Source of the DNA: a bacterium
GTDB lineage: Bacteria > Patescibacteriota > Minisyncoccia > Phycocordibacterales > CAIZIN01
NCBI GenBank assembly: GCA_037131675.1
Contig: JBAXQO010000004.1
Location: forward strand, 1-48,990
Direction of reading: 5' to 3'
Length of the DNA stretch: 48,990 nucleotides
Position 1 is the stretch's first letter. Every line of letters starts with the position of its first letter. Below are positions 1 to 48,990 of the stretch, piece by piece. Position numbers and translations under genes: made by a program. Below the pieces are notes generated by a model, which was not told the DNA's origin, made no database searches, and saw nothing but the letters and a program-made list of their open reading frames with translations.

Positions 1-2
1 AT

Positions 3-76
3 GCGGGTGTAGCTCAGCTGGTTAGAGCGCTTCCCTGTCACGGAAGAGGCCGTGGGTTCGAGTCCCATCACTCGCG
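3..76 (+). tRNA. tRNA-Asp(GTC)
   Basis: Acceptor GCGGGTG/CACTCGC, anticodon arm CTTCC-ctGTCac-GGAAG, GGTTCGAGTCC T-loop, discriminator G76; CCA not encoded. Confidence 0.97.
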
Positions 77-77
77 C

Positions 78-227
78 AAAAAATCAAAAGATCTGGTCTT
101 GTGCCAGGTCTTTTGATTTTTTATAGCGAGCTAGGCGGGACTCGAAAACCGGAAGGAGCGAATGCGACTGAGGTGGGGTCGAGTAAAAATTCAGCAGAAT
201 TTTATACGTGACCGAGTCCCATCACTC
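78..227 (+). repeat. tRNA-3'-associated structured element (Asp copy)
   Basis: 19-bp hairpin 78-122; GCGAG 126-130 and GGGACTCGAA 137-146 antisense to tRNA 71-75 and 57-66; GGTCG...TGACC enclosing an AGCA-loop hairpin 186-203; 15-bp direct copy of tRNA 59-73 at 213-227. Confidence 0.85.
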
Positions 228-322
228 TTGCGGTGAACAAGTGGGTTTTTATAAAAATAAATATGATATAATTCTACCAGAATATCTTCTGGTATTTCAA
301 TTTTATTATTTAATTTAACTAC

Positions 323-2962
323 ATGAAAGTTTTTTATAAGATTTGTCTTTCGTTGTTTTTTATTATTTTTTCTGCTGGTTTGGTGTCTGCCGAGACTCTT
401 CCTAGCATGCCTTATATTCCAAAAGTAAGTATATCTAACTTAAAGTTGGATAAAGATTCTTACCGTATTGGAGATGTGGTGACTGGTTCTTTTGATCTTG
501 TGAACAAGGAGAGCTTTGATGTTGAAGGTATAAACTATCAAGTCTCTTTAGTTGGTGCTTTGGATAAAAACGGAGTTCCAAATGTGGAATATGATCTTGG
601 TACTACTACACCGATTGCTGTTTCCCCTAAGACAAAACAACATGTTGCATTTAAATATAATTTAAGAAATGCTCCCAATGATACCGCAGCCGGAATATTA
701 CTCTCTCTTGTTATGAATAATGGGATAGAGCTTTCTTGGAAAAGTTCTCCTGTAAAAATTATTGGTGGAGTTTCCATTCTTACTCCTGTGAATGCTTTTA
801 TTAAATTTGATGGTAAAAAGTTTGAGCTACAACAGGGTCCGACTGTTTCTTCAGACAAGGAAACAAACTTTAGTGTTTCTTTTTTTAATGAAAGTAAGGA
901 TGTGTACAATTTACATACAACCATGGTTTTGCAAGACAAATCAATGGTAGATGTACCAGATTTTAAGCCCGTTTTGTCGACTCCAGTCAAGGTTTTGGCC
1001 TTCTCAACAACGACAATAACTTCTGTTTTACCGACAAAAGGTTTAGTGCCTGGTGTGTATCTTGCCAAGTTTACTTTCTCTGATGATAAAGATGTTTCCA
1101 GGGCTCCGGTTTTATATGCGAGATATATAGTTGGAGGTGATATGGTTTCTATTGTGAATGTTACTTCTGGTACTGTTTTGCCAGCAAAAGCAGACGATAC
1201 TCTAAATGTAGATATTGCTTATACTGGTAGGCCTTTGGATATTACTTCTAACAATAGTTCCTCCACAACAACAGCAAATATTAGTGTTGTTGTAAAAAAT
1301 GAAAAGAATGAGACGGTTTTGAATTATAATGAAGAAAAGCAATTTGGTCTTTTTGGAGTTATTAATATTTCTGGAAATATAAACAAACCAGCAGAATCTT
1401 TAACGGCTGAAGTTACTGTAACTAAAGGTGGTAATGAAATACTTGCTAGCTATAAAAATAAAATTATTTTTAGTGACATATACTCTGGTAAAAAAACAAA
1501 CTCCGACGGTCAATATGTTGAGGAGGTAAATACGCCTCCGGTTAAATCTAATAAATATATTTTTGTTTTGTACGGAATTGCGATTTTGTTATTTATAATT
1601 GCTGTTATTGTTTTGGTTGTTATCCGGAAAAAAAGATTAGCTGCAACTTTAATATTGGTTGGTGTGAGTTTGTTTTCTTACTCGGCACACGCTGATTTTA
1701 TTGTCGTTTCATCCCAAAACGCAGGTGTGGTAGTAGATGGTCAGGAATACGGAAGAGCTCCTGTTGTTACTGGAGATCTTTCACCTGATATTTTGTATCC
1801 GGGGGAACCATATAGTGTTTCTGGCACCATCCAAAACTGGGCTTGTAATAATTCATATTCTGATGTAAATGTTTTGGGTTATGTGACTAGTGAAAACGTT
1901 TTGTTATCACAGAGTGATAAGGTGTCTACTCCATTTAATGCGAATCATGGCAGTTATGTACATTCTACCAGATTTGCTTCAGATAGAAATATTAAGGCTC
2001 CAACTGTTCCTGATACATATTCTTTTAAATTAGATGTAACATCTCGTATGTATTGGGATGGAAATGTTTACTCTGGGTATCAAAGTCGTACCTTTGGATT
2101 TTTCCCATTCACTGTTGTTTCTGATTCAATAAATAACTTGTCATATATGTGTAATAGTGGGACATCTACTGTCTTAAGTTGGTCTCCTATTGTACCTGCA
2201 GACGGGTATAGCGTGGTGGTTAGTGATAATTTAAAAACCATAAGAGATACAGTGTCTGTAAGTTCTTATCAATTTAATTCTGATAGTGAAAAAGATTACA
2301 ATGCAATTGTTAAACCTTGCCAAGGCGACTTTTGTGGTAAGGCAACTTCGATTGTAACTAGGTGCGCAGGAGAGTGTGTGTCAAATACAAGTCGAGTTTG
2401 TTCTACCTCTGATCCTGATAAGATTTTTGATAATTGTGGGAAGGTGGTGGATACTTGTTCCGGAGGAGATATTTGCTCTGGTGGTATGTGTACAAAAACA
2501 ACAGTAAGTGCTGATAAAAATAAAAATCAATGTAATCTTAGCGCCTCATCAACAGCAATATATGATAACAACGGTAAATTTGTAAAAACTTGTCCAAGTG
2601 GTGAAGCTTGTTTTGATGGTTACTGTACATCAATCTCTTCTCTTTCTAGTGACCCTGCAAAAATAAATCTACGTGGAAGAGTTACAACAAATGATATGTC
2701 AGCGCCATGGAAGACCGCATCTCCTGTTGCAAATGTTATTGTAAGTAAGGGTGGGAAACTAGATCTAGACTGGGTTGTTACAGGTAGTTTTTCAGGAATG
2801 ACATGTACAACTAATAATATAAATTCATCAATTGGTTATGGCGGAACTTGGACTACTGGTGTAAACAATGAGACAACTTCTTATTCGATAACTTGTAAAA
2901 ATGCCTACGGTACCGACACAAAGACTGTGAAATCTATTGTTTATCAAACCTCAGAGTATTAG
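323..2962 (+). CDS. Large exported/membrane-anchored protein with central TM hairpin and Cys-rich C-terminal half
   Basis: 879-aa ORF; N-terminal signal peptide (VSA/E); TM at ~413-434 then RKKR plus a second hydrophobic segment ending SAHA; about 17 Cys in the C-terminal half; TGATATAAT upstream at 264-272. Confidence 0.85.
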   Translation: MKVFYKICLSLFFIIFSAGLVSAETLPSMPYIPKVSISNLKLDKDSYRIGDVVTGSFDLVNKESFDVEGINYQVSLVGALDKNGVPNVEYDLGTTTPIAVSPKTKQHVAFKYNLRNAPNDTAAGILLSLVMNNGIELSWKSSPVKIIGGVSILTPVNAFIKFDGKKFELQQGPTVSSDKETNFSVSFFNESKDVYNLHTTMVLQDKSMVDVPDFKPVLSTPVKVLAFSTTTITSVLPTKGLVPGVYLAKFTFSDDKDVSRAPVLYARYIVGGDMVSIVNVTSGTVLPAKADDTLNVDIAYTGRPLDITSNNSSSTTTANISVVVKNEKNETVLNYNEEKQFGLFGVINISGNINKPAESLTAEVTVTKGGNEILASYKNKIIFSDIYSGKKTNSDGQYVEEVNTPPVKSNKYIFVLYGIAILLFIIAVIVLVVIRKKRLAATLILVGVSLFSYSAHADFIVVSSQNAGVVVDGQEYGRAPVVTGDLSPDILYPGEPYSVSGTIQNWACNNSYSDVNVLGYVTSENVLLSQSDKVSTPFNANHGSYVHSTRFASDRNIKAPTVPDTYSFKLDVTSRMYWDGNVYSGYQSRTFGFFPFTVVSDSINNLSYMCNSGTSTVLSWSPIVPADGYSVVVSDNLKTIRDTVSVSSYQFNSDSEKDYNAIVKPCQGDFCGKATSIVTRCAGECVSNTSRVCSTSDPDKIFDNCGKVVDTCSGGDICSGGMCTKTTVSADKNKNQCNLSASSTAIYDNNGKFVKTCPSGEACFDGYCTSISSLSSDPAKINLRGRVTTNDMSAPWKTASPVANVIVSKGGKLDLDWVVTGSFSGMTCTTNNINSSIGYGGTWTTGVNNETTSYSITCKNAYGTDTKTVKSIVYQTSEY

Positions 2963-2974
2963 CTAGTGGATATA

Positions 2975-3018
2975 AAATAAAATCCTCAATTAAAAGTTGG
3001 GGATTTTATTTTTTTTGG
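2975..3018 (+). terminator. Intrinsic terminator
   Basis: AAAATCCTCAA-ttaaaag-TTGGGGATTTT followed by a T-run, just after the stop at 2962. Confidence 0.7.
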
Positions 3019-3096
3019 TTAATAAAAATTGGATTGAATTTATATAAATAAATTAATAAAAAAGACATAACAAGTAAAATTTGATATTATTTTTAC

Positions 3097-3549
3097 ATGA
3101 ATGATAAACCACTTAGTCTAGGGGAAATTAGAAGTTTACGAAAACCTATACGAAACGTAAATATCGAGCATAAAGAAAAGCTAACCAAACTTGAAAAGTT
3201 CGCTGTTTGGGTGACAGAGAACATTGGAACAATGGGTTTCTTTTTCTTTATATTATTTTTTAATGCTATATGGATAGTTTGGAATGTTCTAGCCCCAAAG
3301 GAAATGGTTTTTGATCCAGGGTGGAGTTTTCTTATCCTTCTCTTTATAAACAACATATTACAAATTCTTTTCATGCCACTTATTATGGTAGGGCAGAACC
3401 TTCAGGGAAGGCATTCTGAAGCTAGGGCAGAAGCTGATTTTGAAGTTAATACTAAAGCTGAGAGAGAAATAGAAGCAATTCTTTTACATCTTGAAAATCA
3501 AAATGAGGGAATACTAGAGATTATTAATAAATTAGATCAGAAAAAATAA
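3097..3549 (+). CDS. DUF1003-family membrane protein
   Basis: Two TM segments and the LIMVGQN...RHSEARAEADFEVNTKAE motif typical of DUF1003. Confidence 0.85.
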   Translation: MNDKPLSLGEIRSLRKPIRNVNIEHKEKLTKLEKFAVWVTENIGTMGFFFFILFFNAIWIVWNVLAPKEMVFDPGWSFLILLFINNILQILFMPLIMVGQNLQGRHSEARAEADFEVNTKAEREIEAILLHLENQNEGILEIINKLDQKK

Positions 3550-3553
3550 AATC

Positions 3554-4201
3554 ATGACGACTAAAATGAAACAACAGAGGCTTAATGGTCTTGGTGACGG
3601 TATTTTTTCAATCGTTATGACATTGCTTGTGTTGGAATTTAAGGTTCCATTGTTAGACGGACAGGTTACCGATTTAATGTTATGGCAAAATCTTGGAAAA
3701 CTTTGGCCTATATTTATAAGTTTTATTTTAAGTTTTGCTCTCTTGTTTACGTATTGGCGCGCACATCATTTTCTTGTTTCGGTATATGCAAAATCTGTAA
3801 CTGTGGGTTTAGCAAATCTTAATGCTCTTTTTTTCTTTTTAATTACGCTGATTCCGTTCAGTGCTCACTTGCTTGGCGTTTATAATCAGACGAGAGTAGC
3901 AATTGTTGTCTATGGTTTAAATATTATATGTATAGGGATAACACTTTTCTGGATGAGAGAGCATATAGAGCATACTGAGTCTATAGAAAAAGTCGCAATT
4001 TCAAAACATGAATATGTGAGTGGGTATGTACGAACTGTTTTTCCTGTTATTGCTGCGTGTGTTGCAATTATAGTTTCTTTTTATAGTACAGAATTATCCA
4101 TTTTTGTATTTACTGGTTCAATACTATTTAATCTTTTACCTGCATCAATGAATCCAATATATAGTGGATTAAATGGGGTAATGGAAAAGGTTGTTGGATA
4201 G
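3554..4201 (+). CDS. TMEM175-family (DUF1211) potassium channel
   Basis: RLNGLGDGIFSIVMTLLVLE N-terminal signature, YWRAHH motif, six TM segments. Confidence 0.85.
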   Translation: MTTKMKQQRLNGLGDGIFSIVMTLLVLEFKVPLLDGQVTDLMLWQNLGKLWPIFISFILSFALLFTYWRAHHFLVSVYAKSVTVGLANLNALFFFLITLIPFSAHLLGVYNQTRVAIVVYGLNIICIGITLFWMREHIEHTESIEKVAISKHEYVSGYVRTVFPVIAACVAIIVSFYSTELSIFVFTGSILFNLLPASMNPIYSGLNGVMEKVVG

Positions 4202-4257
4202 TTTGAAAAAAGCCTTAAAATATATTACTATTCATCGGTGTTTGTATTTTTGCAAAC

Positions 4258-4330
4258 GCCGTTGTAGCTCAATCGGTAGAGCACTCCATTGGTAATGGGG
4301 AGGTAGTGAGTTCGAAACTCATCAACGGCT
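4258..4330 (+). tRNA. tRNA-Thr(GGT)
   Basis: Acceptor GCCGTTG/CAACGGC, anticodon arm CTCCA-ttGGTaa-TGGGG, GTTCGAAAC T-loop. Confidence 0.95.
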
Positions 4331-4347: not shown

Positions 4348-4418
4348 GCCAGTATAGTTCAGTGGCAGAACACTACTTTCGTAAAGTAGGAACGTGAGTT
4401 CGATTCTCACTCCTGGCT
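4348..4418 (+). tRNA. tRNA-Thr(CGT)
   Basis: Acceptor GCCAGTA/TCCTGGC (one T:C mismatch), anticodon arm CTACT-ttCGTaa-AGTAG, GTTCGATTC T-loop. Confidence 0.9.
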
Positions 4419-4499
4419 CAAAAATAGGCTTTTAAGTAAAAACTTGCATTATTTTAGAGATATGGTAATGTCATCTCAGGTTAAATTTTAAGCATTTTT

Positions 4500-4576
4500 G
4501 GGGCCGGGGGTAGTCCTCCTGTCCTGGCCGCATCTCCTACTGCACTCCCGCGGCATTTCTTCCTGCCCTCGGTCCC
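4500..4576 (+). ncRNA. GC-rich structured ncRNA candidate (possibly a degenerate SRP RNA)
   Basis: 14 consecutive pairs between 4500-4513 and 4563-4576 (3 G-U); inner GCCGC/GCGGC helix; possible promoter TTGCAT (4444) with TGgTAATGT (4463-4471). The SRP helix-8 motif is not present. Confidence 0.35.
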
Positions 4577-4690
4577 AAAAAGTTCTTTCTCCAGAGCCCC
4601 CCCCCGGAGCTCCCCCAAAAGACCCGTCGCCCAAACACTCCCCCAAAGTGTACAGGCGACGGGTCATAATTTTTGATATAATCGTTTTTA

Positions 4691-16451: not shown

Positions 16452-16636
16452 GTTGCAAGACTTGGAATCTCTCCCTCGACTAAAAATTTTCCGTCGAAAA
16501 TTTTTGTCTGGGCACCGCCTCATGAAATTTTCTGCTGAAAATTTCTATTCCGGCGTTCGAGTCCAAGGCGAAAGTGCTCCCAGCACTTTCTTCCCGCAGC
16601 AAATAAAAAACGGCTCTATTGAGCCGTTTTTTATTT
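16452..16636 (-). repeat. tRNA-3'-associated structured element (Gln copy)
   Basis: 16-bp hairpin 16601-16636; antisense to the tRNA 3' end at 16592-16600 and 16556-16567, split by a 24-nt hairpin insert; AGCA-loop (16524-16545) and GACG-loop (16482-16505) hairpins; 13/16 direct copy of the tRNA end at 16454-16469. Confidence 0.88.
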
Positions 16637-16637
16637 G

Positions 16638-16708
16638 CTGCGGGACTTGGACTCGAACCAAGATACACGGTTCCAGAAACCGTAGTCCTACCATTAGACG
16701 ATCCCGCA
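16638..16708 (-). tRNA. tRNA-Gln(CTG)
   Basis: On - strand acceptor TGCGGGA/TCCCGCA, anticodon arm ACGGT-ttCTGga-ACCGT, GGTTCGAGTCC. Confidence 0.95.
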
Positions 16709-16835
16709 ATGAAGAATACAATACTAGAAAACTGCCTTTTTTTCAAGTGCTGGAAAATTTTTAGATTTGCTGGAAATAGAAAATATAAAAATGTATAATT
16801 ACTTCTTAACTTTATTTTTTGAAAACTTTTATTTT

Positions 16836-39508: not shown

Positions 39509-39764
<256 letters not shown>

Positions 39765-47254: not shown

Positions 47255-47632
47255 GTGGAATTTCGTGATAGGCAAAAAATGTATCAGCTAGTGTATTCAA
47301 AAGTAACTATTTTGATTACAGTGTTCTTTATTATTGTCCTTATTCCTGGAGTTTACGGTATTTATAAAAAAGTAAGTGAGAGTGAAAAAGACAGAAAAGC
47401 TGCCGAGCGAGAGCTTGCAGATTTGGAAACACGTGAGCAAATGCTTGTATTGAAAGTTGACCGAGGTAATACAGACAGAGGACTTGAGGAACAGATTCGT
47501 GAAAAATATAATGTTGCAAAAGAAGGGGAATCAGTTATTGTGTTAGTTGATAAACCTATTGCTGCATCCACCACACAAAATGAAGCCAATGTATTTAAGG
47601 CTGTGTGGCAAAGGTTGAAAAAAGCATTTTAA
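47255..47632 (+). CDS. FtsB/DivIC-like septum formation initiator
   Basis: One TM, a coiled coil, then LEEQIREKYNVAKEGESVIVLV; GTG start 7 nt after TGATATAAT. Confidence 0.8.
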   Translation: MEFRDRQKMYQLVYSKVTILITVFFIIVLIPGVYGIYKKVSESEKDRKAAERELADLETREQMLVLKVDRGNTDRGLEEQIREKYNVAKEGESVIVLVDKPIAASTTQNEANVFKAVWQRLKKAF

Positions 47633-47635
47633 AAA

Positions 47636-47706
47636 GCGGGTATTGTTTAGTGGTAGAATGCGACCTTCCCAAGGTTGAGACGCGAGTTCGATTCTCGCTA
47701 CCCGCA
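47636..47706 (+). tRNA. tRNA-Gly(CCC)
   Basis: Acceptor GCGGGTA/TACCCGC, anticodon arm CGACC-ttCCCaa-GGTTG, GTTCGATTC; discriminator A. Confidence 0.95.
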
Positions 47707-47707
47707 C

Positions 47708-47880
47708 AAATAAAAAACGGCATGTGCCGTTTTTTTTATTTGTGCGGGTAAGAAAGCTCCTGTGGAGCTTTCGTGCGAGAATCGAAGGGCGTAGCGGGAC
47801 CCAAGCCAGCAGGCTTGGGAGCGAGCCAGGGTCGTGAAAATTTTGGTTTGACGAAACCAAAATTATTCCTGACCGATTTT
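47708..47880 (+). repeat. tRNA-3'-associated structured element (Gly copy)
   Basis: Hairpin 47708-47741; antisense GTGCGGGTA 47742-47750 and GCGAGAATCGAA 47775-47786 split by a 24-nt hairpin insert; AGCA-loop 47800-47819; GGTCG...TGACCGA with an 11-bp GACG-loop hairpin 47839-47864. Confidence 0.88.
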
Positions 47881-47922
47881 ACACTTTTTTTCTTCACCTT
47901 ATTTATGTTAGTATCTAACTAT

Positions 47923-48990
47923 ATGAAAAAAATAATTCCTATATTTTGTGCGGTGGTCTTCATCTTTGCTTTGAATGTAAATACAATTCATGCACAAACA
48001 TTTTCTAATCCATTACAAATTTCTGCATGGATACCATATTGGACAAAAACCGATGGTACAAAGTCTGCGTCAGATCATATTTCATATTTTAATGAGCTTA
48101 ATCCATTTTCTTTTGAAGTTCAGCCGGACGGTACAATTAAAGATGCTTTGAAATTAACACAAAGTCCTTGGACGGAATTAATTCAGAAAGCAAAAATTTA
48201 TAATGTAAACATTGTTCCAACTTTCCTTTGGACGGGTCCCACAGCAATGAAAAATGTTTTTACTGATATTTCAGCTACAAATAACCATATCAACGCCATC
48301 ATAAAAGCAGCACAATCTATTAATGCTACAGGTGTAGATATTGATTATGAAGGCAAGAGAATGGAAGATAAAGCATTGTATGCTCAGTTTATGAGAAAAC
48401 TAAGTACTGCTTTGAAACAGAAAGGCATGACACTATCATGCACCATAGAAGGATCTTCCACAGCTTCTCCGTCTGCACGTTTGTTAACGCTTAAAGCCAC
48501 ATCTCCTTGGTCAAATGACCTAAAAACATTAAATGAAGTATGTGATGTTGTGAGAGTGATGGCATATGATCAGATGGCACAAACAACTACATCAACATGG
48601 AATGCAAAGGATAAGACCTTCTATGCTCCAAACGCAGATATTTCTTGGGTAAGAAAGGTGCTTGAATACAACCTAAGGTATATTGATAAAAATAAATTAG
48701 TGTTAGGTGTACCAACATATGGCTGGAATACCAAAGTTACAAAATCAAAGAAAGGTGGCTATGACTATGAGATTATGAAATCTATGTCATATGTAGACTC
48801 AGTACAACTCGCAAAAGATAATAATATAACACCACATAGAGACGCTACAGGGGAGTTAAGTTTTTCTTATGTGAAAGACGGAGAACAGAGAATTGTGTTT
48901 TTCTCGGATGCATATTCTGTCCAACTCGCATTGGAAGCTGCTAAGAAATATAATATAAAGGGGGTGTCATTATTTAAGCTAGACGGTAAA
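47923..48990 (+). CDS. Secreted GH18 glycoside hydrolase (runs off the window end; not in ORF track)
   Basis: My translation: signal peptide MKKIIPIFCAVV...IHA, SAWIPYW, TGVDIDYEG (DxDxE), VRVMAYDQ, LVLGVPTYG, GVSLFKL; no stop before 48990. Confidence 0.88.
   Translation, partial: MKKIIPIFCAVVFIFALNVNTIHAQTFSNPLQISAWIPYWTKTDGTKSASDHISYFNELNPFSFEVQPDGTIKDALKLTQSPWTELIQKAKIYNVNIVPTFLWTGPTAMKNVFTDISATNNHINAIIKAAQSINATGVDIDYEGKRMEDKALYAQFMRKLSTALKQKGMTLSCTIEGSSTASPSARLLTLKATSPWSNDLKTLNEVCDVVRVMAYDQMAQTTTSTWNAKDKTFYAPNADISWVRKVLEYNLRYIDKNKLVLGVPTYGWNTKVTKSKKGGYDYEIMKSMSYVDSVQLAKDNNITPHRDATGELSFSYVKDGEQRIVFFSDAYSVQLALEAAKKYNIKGVSLFKLDGK

Follow-up and report, generated by a model that had tools for sequence, protein, structure and literature searches.

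The window analysed here, a stretch of 48,990 nucleotides, begins with a tRNA-Asp gene whose 3' end is found again, letter for letter, further downstream, and this raises the question of what the second copy is and how it came to lie there. We found CGAGTCCCATCACTC exactly twice, once within tRNA-Asp (59-73) and once at 213-227, with no third match even when up to two mismatches were allowed (approximately 0.03 chance matches expected). Two copies were seen in none of 100 shuffles, and in a second control the 15-mer was present in none of 20000 shuffles of positions 78-400, which cover the ~320 nt downstream of the tRNA. The exact repeat announced in the original prediction is thus confirmed. 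The likeness of the distal copy to tRNA-Asp stops at 227 (CTCTTGCGG versus CTCGCGCAA).

Between the two copies lies a gene-less, folded cassette of ~150 bases, whose parts are listed in Table 1. The hairpin S that directly follows the tRNA forms a perfect 20-bp stem in the predicted fold, and a similar kind of hairpin is present behind tRNAs of congeners that carry no cassette. A consensus terminator scan did not call it, since the T-run is located inside the extended stem, and is therefore uninformative for S. The antisense arm X' comes next, and its segment GGGACTCG (137-144) complements CGAGTCCC exactly, both in the tRNA (59-66) and in the distal copy (213-220); the claim that this segment can pair with either the tRNA or the distal copy was therefore correct. 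The core M consists of two hairpins: hpB contains a GGA/GAG internal loop, and in hpC (GGTCG...TGACC) one G-U pair is conserved. A second hairpin, which overlaps the distal copy, is identical in strains L118 and L119 and is probably the original trailer or terminator. At the gathering score, Rfam recognized only tRNA in the window, and searches of two cassettes up to an E value of 10 yielded only tRNA and hairpin noise. The only open reading frames of at least 100 amino acids that overlap the units of the window (16453..16764, 47543..47860 and 47773..48990) are spurious ones that span a tRNA gene or a cassette.

Table 1. Coordinates of the cassettes, their parts and the empty site in the window.
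Feature	Position	Strand	Basis or remark
tRNA-Asp(GTC)	3..77	+	ARAGORN and Rfam tRNA, 70.5 bits
Asp, proximal repeat copy	59-73	+	C56 (T-loop) to acceptor position 70 of tRNA-Asp
Asp, hairpin S	78..122	+	Sequence; A-tract, GC stem, T-tract; terminator-like palindrome directly 3' of tRNA-Asp
Asp, antisense arm X'	126..146	+	Sequence
Asp, X' acceptor part	126-130	+	GCGAG, complement of acceptor 3' strand
Asp, X' T-arm part	137-146	+	GGGACTCGAA, complement of T-loop and T-stem 3' strand
Asp, type-1 core M (hpB and hpC)	147..213	+	Covariance model R1, E 5.7e-6
Asp, distal direct copy	213..227	+	tRNA-Asp positions 56-70; pairs with 137-144
Asp, second hairpin and T-run	218..250	+	Sequence; CCCATCACTCTTG..CAAGTGGG TTTTT, overlapping distal copy
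tRNA-Thr(CGT) and trailer	4348..4440	+	Empty site in window strain; filled in L118
Gln(CTG) cassette	16454..16636	-	Includes core model match
Gln, hairpin S	16601-16636	-	
Gln, X'a	16592-16600	-	
Gln, hpA	16569-16591	-	
Gln, X't	16556-16567	-	
Gln, core	16472-16555	-	
Gln, distal copy	16454-16469	-	
Ser(GGA) cassette	39511..39676	-	Without A/T-tract hairpin
Ser, X'a	39644-39649	-	
Ser, hpA	39624-39640	-	
Ser, X't	39615-39625	-	
Ser, core	39528-39614	-	
Gly(CCC) cassette	47708..47878	+	
Gly, hairpin S	47708-47741	+	
Gly, X'a	47742-47750	+	
Gly, hpA	47751-47773	+	
Gly, X't	47775-47786	+	
Gly, core	47787-47874	+	

Three further cassettes are present in the window, behind tRNA-Gln, tRNA-Ser and tRNA-Gly, and the state of their distal copies agrees with what had been described: a 13/16 match for Gln (16454-16469 versus 16639-16654), a degenerate one for Ser (CGAATTCCCTTCCTCTCC at 39511-39528), and CGATT alone for Gly (47874-47878). 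Despite the lost distal copy, the antisense arms of the Gly cassette are perfect (12/12 and 9/9). We also note that positions 4490-4675 (+ strand), behind the tRNA-Thr pair, form a C-rich, strongly folded stretch of ~180 nt (MFE -78 kcal/mol, z = -7.3); it had no Rfam match up to an E value of 1, and a related sequence is found at the same place in L118.

The genome that holds the window (G000; 745-kb assembly, 37% G+C, 93% complete) was then inspected over the 250 nt located 3' of every tRNA gene (n = 43). Composite units of the same kind lie immediately behind ~27 of the 41 assessable tRNA genes, and like the four in the window they are co-oriented with the tRNA. Their parts follow the order tRNA end (X), hairpin S, X', core M, and X again, over a length of 110-190 nt. 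One portion of X', X'a, is the reverse complement of the acceptor 3' strand and turns X-S-X' into a palindrome of 25-45 bp; the other, X't, is the reverse complement of the T-stem 3' strand and T-loop and always ends in ...TCGAA. A small side hairpin, hpA, is placed exactly at the acceptor/T-stem boundary and often splits X'. In addition to these long forms there are short ones, which have an antisense piece of only 3-7 nt and a short repeat, such as CACAAAA, and lack both the T-arm antisense and the long repeat. Across cassettes, the target duplication measures from 8 to more than 30 nt, and some copies are located behind protein genes (rpsI and a grpE-like gene), with arms fitted to those gene ends. 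When distal stretches were compared with the 43 tRNA 3' ends of G000, the cognate end ranked first for 8 elements and within the top three for 15 of the ~20 long-form elements, so that the copies do resemble their own tRNA more than others, as the original prediction implied. In the same genome, outside of the window, ARAGORN calls a 'tRNA-Stop(tta)' (contig C14:16842-16915); a shift of one base in the anticodon stem gives the loop CTTTTAA of an ordinary tRNA-Lys(UUU), and the call is probably an artefact rather than a suppressor tRNA.

The arms and the distal copy are not kept to the same degree. X't is correct at 11 or more of its 12 positions in 29 of 43 long-form elements, and the distal copy at 17 or more of 19 in only 13 of the 43; at Gly, Pro and Leu-caa the arms are perfect and the distal copy is nearly erased. 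Substitutions in the distal copy display no bias towards sparing wobble pairs (C>T 0.10 per C versus G>A 0.13 per G), and transversions make up 17 of 46 changes. Such unbiased decay next to an intact X' gives no support to a conserved two-state RNA switch, although the alternative pairings exist in silico; the arms, which are perfect long after distal decay, must be maintained by something. When the arms were compared with the two tRNA strands at 26 informative sites, they proved to equal the antisense of the 3' strand 22 times and the 5' strand itself twice. The arms are thus reverse complements of the 3' strand and the unit is not a decayed duplicate tRNA gene, a candidate that these counts rule out. 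In tRNA-Leu of a related genome (G003), the T-stem has been changed by a compensatory pair, and X't and the distal copy keep the older state, still complementary to each other, with G-U pairs.

The core is the part common to all these units, and exists in two forms. Type-1 cores follow the pattern NCCGGA(hairpin)GAGGCGG GGTCGNGAG(hairpin)CTYGTGACC, and type-2 cores are centred on GGAGCGAAGCGAG. As a MAFFT alignment of all 18 cores misaligned the variants with short hairpins, a covariance model was built from the 10 long cores. G000 carries ~25 type-1 cores according to this model, plus 6 type-2 cores. Type-1 cores were detected in 36 of 41 genomes of the order (0-51 copies each), and, among 150 other genomes sampled from the whole phylum, in no more than 2 (E <= 1e-8, strict filters). 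In an alignment of 101 cores, 94% of cells are paired and 875 cells carry changes on both sides, and the pairing collapses in slid controls. A G-U pair at the foot of hpC, conserved in 73 of 98 cores, places the structure on the tRNA strand, and the core is always co-oriented with its target gene. The variable tips of the hairpins are perfect Watson-Crick palindromes from which G-U pairs are almost absent, which suggests copying of one arm from the other at the DNA level, and not selection at the RNA level.

Near-identical cores are found at different tRNAs together with unrelated S, hpA and X' arms. Examples are the Arg-tct and Gly-tcc cores of G000 (97% identity over 91 nt) and the Leu and Trp cores of G003 (97% over 102 nt); at the Trp locus the core came along with Leu-type T-loop flanks, ACTCGAA...CGAGT. 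Individual hairpins (45-60 nt) have closest relatives of their own, separate from those of the remainder. Cores and single hairpins are thus exchanged between loci. Tandem arrays (X-S-X'-M-X-S2-X'-M2) were also seen. In three related genomes (G001, G002 and G006; loci L010, L048 and L053), small GTGAG...GCAAG hairpins and cores are nested within tRNA genes, just after the D-arm (between ...GTAGAG and TGAGC...), and also in the hpA loops of other cassettes.

In relatives, where a tRNA was detectable upstream of the module, the distal copy mostly starts at C56, the base with which the core's GTGACC ends, or at A58/T59 where the core variant GAGGGAGA is present, and it runs to N73/C74 and often a few bases into the trailer, for a total of 19-30 nt. 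Exact copies of 19-24 nt follow the tRNAs for His, Cys, Met, Tyr, Ser, Arg, Phe and Asp. Behind tRNA-Asp it is an exact 20-mer both in G002, which belongs to the same genus (CGAGTCCCATCACTCGCGCA), and in G009 (CGAGCCCCGTCACTTGCGCA), where it follows G009's own tRNA-Asp, which differs from that of the window at three positions. CCA or CC is kept in distal copies and missing from the proximal genes at Phe, Ser-act and Ser(cga) of G002. Two loci have longer repeats, which beyond the tRNA end also take in S, X'a and one half of hpA: at tRNA-Gly of G036 (L075) the repeat is exact over ~70 nt, and at tRNA-Cys of G022 (L049) it is ~80% identical. In the latter, the tRNA-derived bases of the distal X are identical at 21 of 21 positions, unlike the adjoining duplicated sequence, a contrast that hints at constraint or gene conversion acting on the distal copy.

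Comparison of orthologous sites revealed empty, filled and differently filled versions. The 3' end of rpsI is empty, with a single terminator, in G003, G006, G007 and G009; in G000 the gene is separated from a terminator orthologous to that of G003 by a type-1 cassette whose repeat is AAACGATA, and G001 and G002 carry other cassette types at that place. tRNA-Ser(cga) is empty in G000 and in G003, where it ends in ...CCGCCA, and filled in G002, where the distal copy ...CCGCC is located ~40 nt before the same conserved flank. Likewise, tRNA-Thr(cgt) is empty in G000 and filled in G002, with a 26-nt repeat that includes CCA and abuts the start of the conserved downstream gene. tRNA-Gly(ccc) is filled in G000 and empty in both congeners examined (G002 and G003). 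The distal copy thus adjoins the conserved flank or the orthologous terminator, and these versions of the same sites indicate that the units are insertion cassettes flanked by a duplicated target.

A closely related strain provided a further comparison. Metagenome contig L118, retrieved with a 23-mer of the Asp flank, shares 99.6% identity with the adjoining contig end and 97% with window positions 2-4281. Between identical flanks, its tRNA-Asp is followed by a different cassette: S is not that of the window, the antisense arm is complete, and an hpA and a type-2 core precede ATTCCCACCACTCTT as distal stretch. The sequence common to L118 and the window resumes at CACTCTTGCGG, within the distal copy, which indicates that the 3' part of the window's distal copy is older than the present cassette. 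The 15-mer is thus composite, its 5' part recently imported and its 3' part older and already diverged, which accounts for the abrupt end of identity at 227. At tRNA-Thr(cgt), empty in the window, L118 carries an insert consisting of GGAATCGAA and a type-1 core, bounded by an exact repeat of 28-30 nt, CGATTCCCGCCTTTGGCTCAAAAATAGG(GG), which extends from C56 into the trailer. The insert joins at GG(GG) microhomology, and its antisense piece comprises only a generic 9 nt of the T-loop. Cassettes are therefore gained, lost and swapped even between strains that are ~99% identical in their flanks. The view that the units had been inserted, with the tRNA 3' end directly repeated at their borders, is borne out by the empty rpsI, Ser(cga), Thr(cgt) and Gly(ccc) sites. 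The proposal that decay of the repeat dates the units, with Asp youngest and Gly oldest, does not stand: the Asp site is occupied throughout the family by cassettes that differ between strains, and the Gly cassette is the one missing from both congeners.

Related events were observed on the 5' side of tRNA genes. Upstream of tRNA-Thr(ggt) in L118 (reverse complement), positions 1-24 are found as a stranded copy; next come a GTGAG...GCAAG hairpin, a type-1 core, a decayed anticodon arm and then the intact gene; this event is absent from the window. In G000, outside of the window (C12:383-616), a stranded piece of Arg-cct (approximately positions 1-33) precedes a GTGAG...GCAAG hairpin, a type-1 core and the intact tRNA. 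Both are 5'-side versions of the cassette phenomenon. Finally, in G003 (C2:29924-30238; L110), a tRNA-Asp is split in the anticodon loop by an insertion, its halves matching window positions 2-39 and 39-79 and lying ~236 nt apart.

We looked for partner enzymes by profiling the IS110, Y1 transposase and reverse transcriptase families over the 41 genomes of the order. IS110 (PF01548, DEDD transposase) was found in 5 of the 41, versus 36 with cores; Y1 transposase (PF01797) in 26 and reverse transcriptase (PF00078) in 15. None of the three tracks the number of cores, and none is present in G000. Indeed, G000, G005, G014 and G037 have 13-22 cores and no PF01797 match, G016 and G019 have PF01797 matches and no cores, and G014 and G020, which are complete or nearly so and carry 5-13 cores, have neither IS110, Y1 nor reverse transcriptase. 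These data reject a non-autonomous derivative of IS110/IS1111 with a bridge RNA, as IS110 is missing from G000 and from 36 of the 41 genomes, as well as an IS200/IS605-derived PATE or a REP/RAYT system, for which co-occurrence of a Y1 (HUH) enzyme with the cores was not found. A MITE was rejected in turn, because the arms copy or reverse-complement each local target and the duplication is 8 to more than 30 nt long instead of short and fixed.

One IS110-family transposase gene (344 aa) is located behind tRNA-Met of G002 (L116; C26:5900-7393). Its insertion point follows ...GACGAGACTCGA, an antisense T-arm copy 7 nt behind the tRNA, and the contig ends in ...CTATAGTCGAA; from these junctions, the element sits at the same palindrome-centre position as the cores. 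A core 16-mer was found in 14 viral contigs, of which only one contains real modules: IMGVR_UViG_3300033463_005745 (L120, ~3077-3175) carries tandem units GGGATTTGAA, core, CAAATCCCTCCCC, and although filed as viral it may either derive from Patescibacteria and be misfiled or represent a phage copy. Our literature search found nothing specific on such elements in Patescibacteria.

Taken together, these results make it likely, in our view, that the distal copy represents the downstream half of a target duplication around a small, structured insertion cassette that encodes no protein. The proximal X would complete the working tRNA, and the distal X would adjoin the original downstream flank; when young, the distal X may pair with X' and close the fold of the cassette, later decaying as neutral DNA, and the two X copies could act as homology arms for swapping, loss and tandem growth. 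The empty sites could also be precise deletions between the repeats, no insertion having been caught in the act. As to how the cassettes arise, we tentatively propose copy-choice during host replication, with no dedicated enzyme: the nascent strand would fold back behind the gene and copy its end backwards, which would generate X'; it would then switch to another cassette at the shared ...TCGAA, so that M is copied; and it would return to the T-loop at CGA and copy X a second time, giving the direct repeat. We infer this from the junctions at TCGA (the end of X' and the start of the distal X), the perfect palindromic stems, the microhomology of the L118 insert and the failure of the profiled enzyme families to track the cores. 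Against it, three ordered template switches are needed, and copy-choice alone leaves the order-wide conservation of the core unexplained; the strong covariation of the core and its strand-specific G-U pair would fit a functional RNA or a single-strand site for an enzyme.

A functional RNA would be made by read-through of S, and either act as a two-state switch or use the helix between X' and the distal X to mimic a tRNA end for processing, as has been proposed for RrB of E. coli. The very strong covariation of the core and its conserved G-U pair on the tRNA strand would agree with this, as would X' and the distal copy of G003 Leu, which stay complementary after the change in the tRNA, and a dual-hairpin layout that resembles that of the small RNAs of E. 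coli rrn operons. In addition, the minimum free energy folds predicted for the Asp, Gln and Gly read-through transcripts pair the 3' half of the tRNA with X' and are 10-22 kcal/mol more stable than the tRNA and the remaining transcript folded separately and summed, so that two states appear physically plausible in silico; in the fold predicted for Ser, the cloverleaf is kept. However, the distal copy decays without wobble-sparing and with many transversions, and is nearly gone in Gly and Pro; many tRNAs, sister species and 5 of 41 genomes have no cassette; neither the T-arm antisense nor the long repeat is present in short forms; perfect stems almost free of G-U are unusual under RNA-level selection; and, for a switch, S precedes X'. 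We consider a functional RNA unlikely. Of the two-state switch in the original prediction, the alternative pairings stand, and are energetically strong in silico, but the distal partner decays neutrally and it is the antisense arm that is kept. We consider similarly improbable a mobile element guided by pairing, in which X' would pair with the sense strand of the gene end, as single-stranded DNA or as transcript, and the core would dock a dedicated enzyme. X' always matches its local target, including protein-gene ends such as that of rpsI, the core, conserved and strand-specific, always has the orientation of its target gene, and an IS110-family element occupies the equivalent palindrome centre behind tRNA-Met of G002. 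Yet near-identical cores bear different arms, so that the arm must be rewritten at each site or inherited with it and is no stable guide; the recent Thr insert of L118 has just the generic 9-nt piece; and IS110, Y1 and reverse transcriptase do not co-occur with cores in the 41 genomes. Remnants of classical integrase-mediated, att-flanked islands or prophages, their cargo deleted to ~150 bp, could account for direct repeats of a tRNA end around an insert and for empty sites in relatives. This reading is already largely refuted and we give it very little credence: the units contain no ORF and no integrase, ~27 of them lie at different tRNAs in a 0.75-Mb genome, one small core is common to all in place of unrelated island ends, an antisense copy that att sites lack is present, the repeat varies from 8 to more than 30 nt, and cassettes also occur behind protein genes.

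If the target duplication reading is correct, most tRNA 3' ends, trailers and terminators in these reduced genomes would be rebuilt sequence, and the true original tRNA end would often be a decaying spare copy, which matters for tRNA annotation, calls of encoded CCA and strain typing. If no dedicated enzyme is involved, the cassettes would show that short folded sequences can spread by a novel route.

An insert between direct repeats of a tRNA 3' end, together with empty sites, is the classical hallmark by which tRNA-targeting integrative elements are recognized. P4-type tyrosine-integrase islands and prophages share with the cassettes these repeats, the rebuilding of a working gene and the empty sites; the cassettes differ in having neither integrase nor cargo, in their variable repeat and antisense copy, and in that one kind of element recurs at most tRNAs and also at the ends of protein genes. 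Template switching at quasi-palindromes, and microhomology-mediated fork stalling and template switching, generate inverted and direct duplications. Such processes predict an inverted copy beside a hairpin, a direct copy after the return jump, junctions at short (palindromic) homologies and perfect Watson-Crick stems, with no enzyme of the element's own. To our knowledge, template switching does not spread a conserved core of 60-90 nt through a genome, and we know of no precedent for its recurrence at ~60% of tRNA genes, as is the case here. Miniature repeats such as Correia/NEMIS, RUP/BOX and the Rickettsia palindromic elements (PMC2229807) are also small, non-coding, rich in hairpins, multi-copy and modular, of patchy copy number, and located at gene ends or inside genes; they have constant terminal inverted repeats of their own and short, fixed target duplications, whereas in the cassettes the arms copy the target, and the duplication is long and of varying length.

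The closest likeness is to the tRNA-linked repeats (TLRs) of E. coli, namely the 178-bp repeats of tyrT with RttR (RtT RNA in Rfam) and the rrn small RNAs RrA, RrB and RrF (PMC8144298, which cites Egan and Landy 1978 and Rudd 1999 as sources). [quoted passage not shown] Like the cassettes, E. coli TLRs lie directly 3' of a tRNA or rRNA gene, are co-oriented with it, end in a copy of the gene end and can form tandem arrays; those of rrn, again like the cassettes, lie between two terminators, and the motif GGAGCGAAGCGA is common to TLRs and the type-2 core. The E. coli repeat is 18-19 nt long, compared with 15 exact nucleotides at Asp and 19-24 in relatives, and spans A58-A76 in tyrT versus C56 or A58 to N73/C74 here. 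Indeed, every unit of the tyrT-tyrV locus ends in AATCCTTCCCCCACCACCA (A58-A76) and has an antisense 10-mer, GGGGAAGGAT, that pairs with the repeat and closes a multi-hairpin fold; in the first unit the antisense is GGGGAAGGGT and pairs with one G-U. This arrangement corresponds to the X'-M-X plan of the cassettes. The likeness is architectural only, as a search for homology to RtT/RttR gave no match up to an E value of 10. The cassettes differ in that their antisense arm also covers the acceptor strand, which extends the terminator to a palindrome of 25-45 bp, in that one core family serves ~25 targets, protein genes included, in their presence, absence and swapping between strains, and in distal copies that are mostly without CCA.

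By definition and architecture, the cassettes can be regarded as tRNA-linked repeats, the Patescibacteria counterpart of the E. coli kind. It could even be that all TLRs, those of E. coli included, are made by one process with no element-encoded enzyme, an idea that we hold to be doubtful: the T-loop GTTCGA(A), whose TCGA is the same on both strands, would be a universal pivot at which switches during replication or reverse transcription write inverted and direct copies of a gene end around a folded core, and the core would spread as a 'self-addressing' parasite of gene 3' ends. Were this so, the 3' ends of most tRNA genes in the tiny genomes of Patescibacteria would have been rebuilt in this manner. 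TLRs have been known in E. coli since 1978 and, as far as they are described in PMC8144298, have neither an origin nor a general function. The cassettes offer hundreds of young and old copies, with empty, filled and swapped alleles of the same sites, and thereby make the origin of tRNA-linked repeats directly testable.
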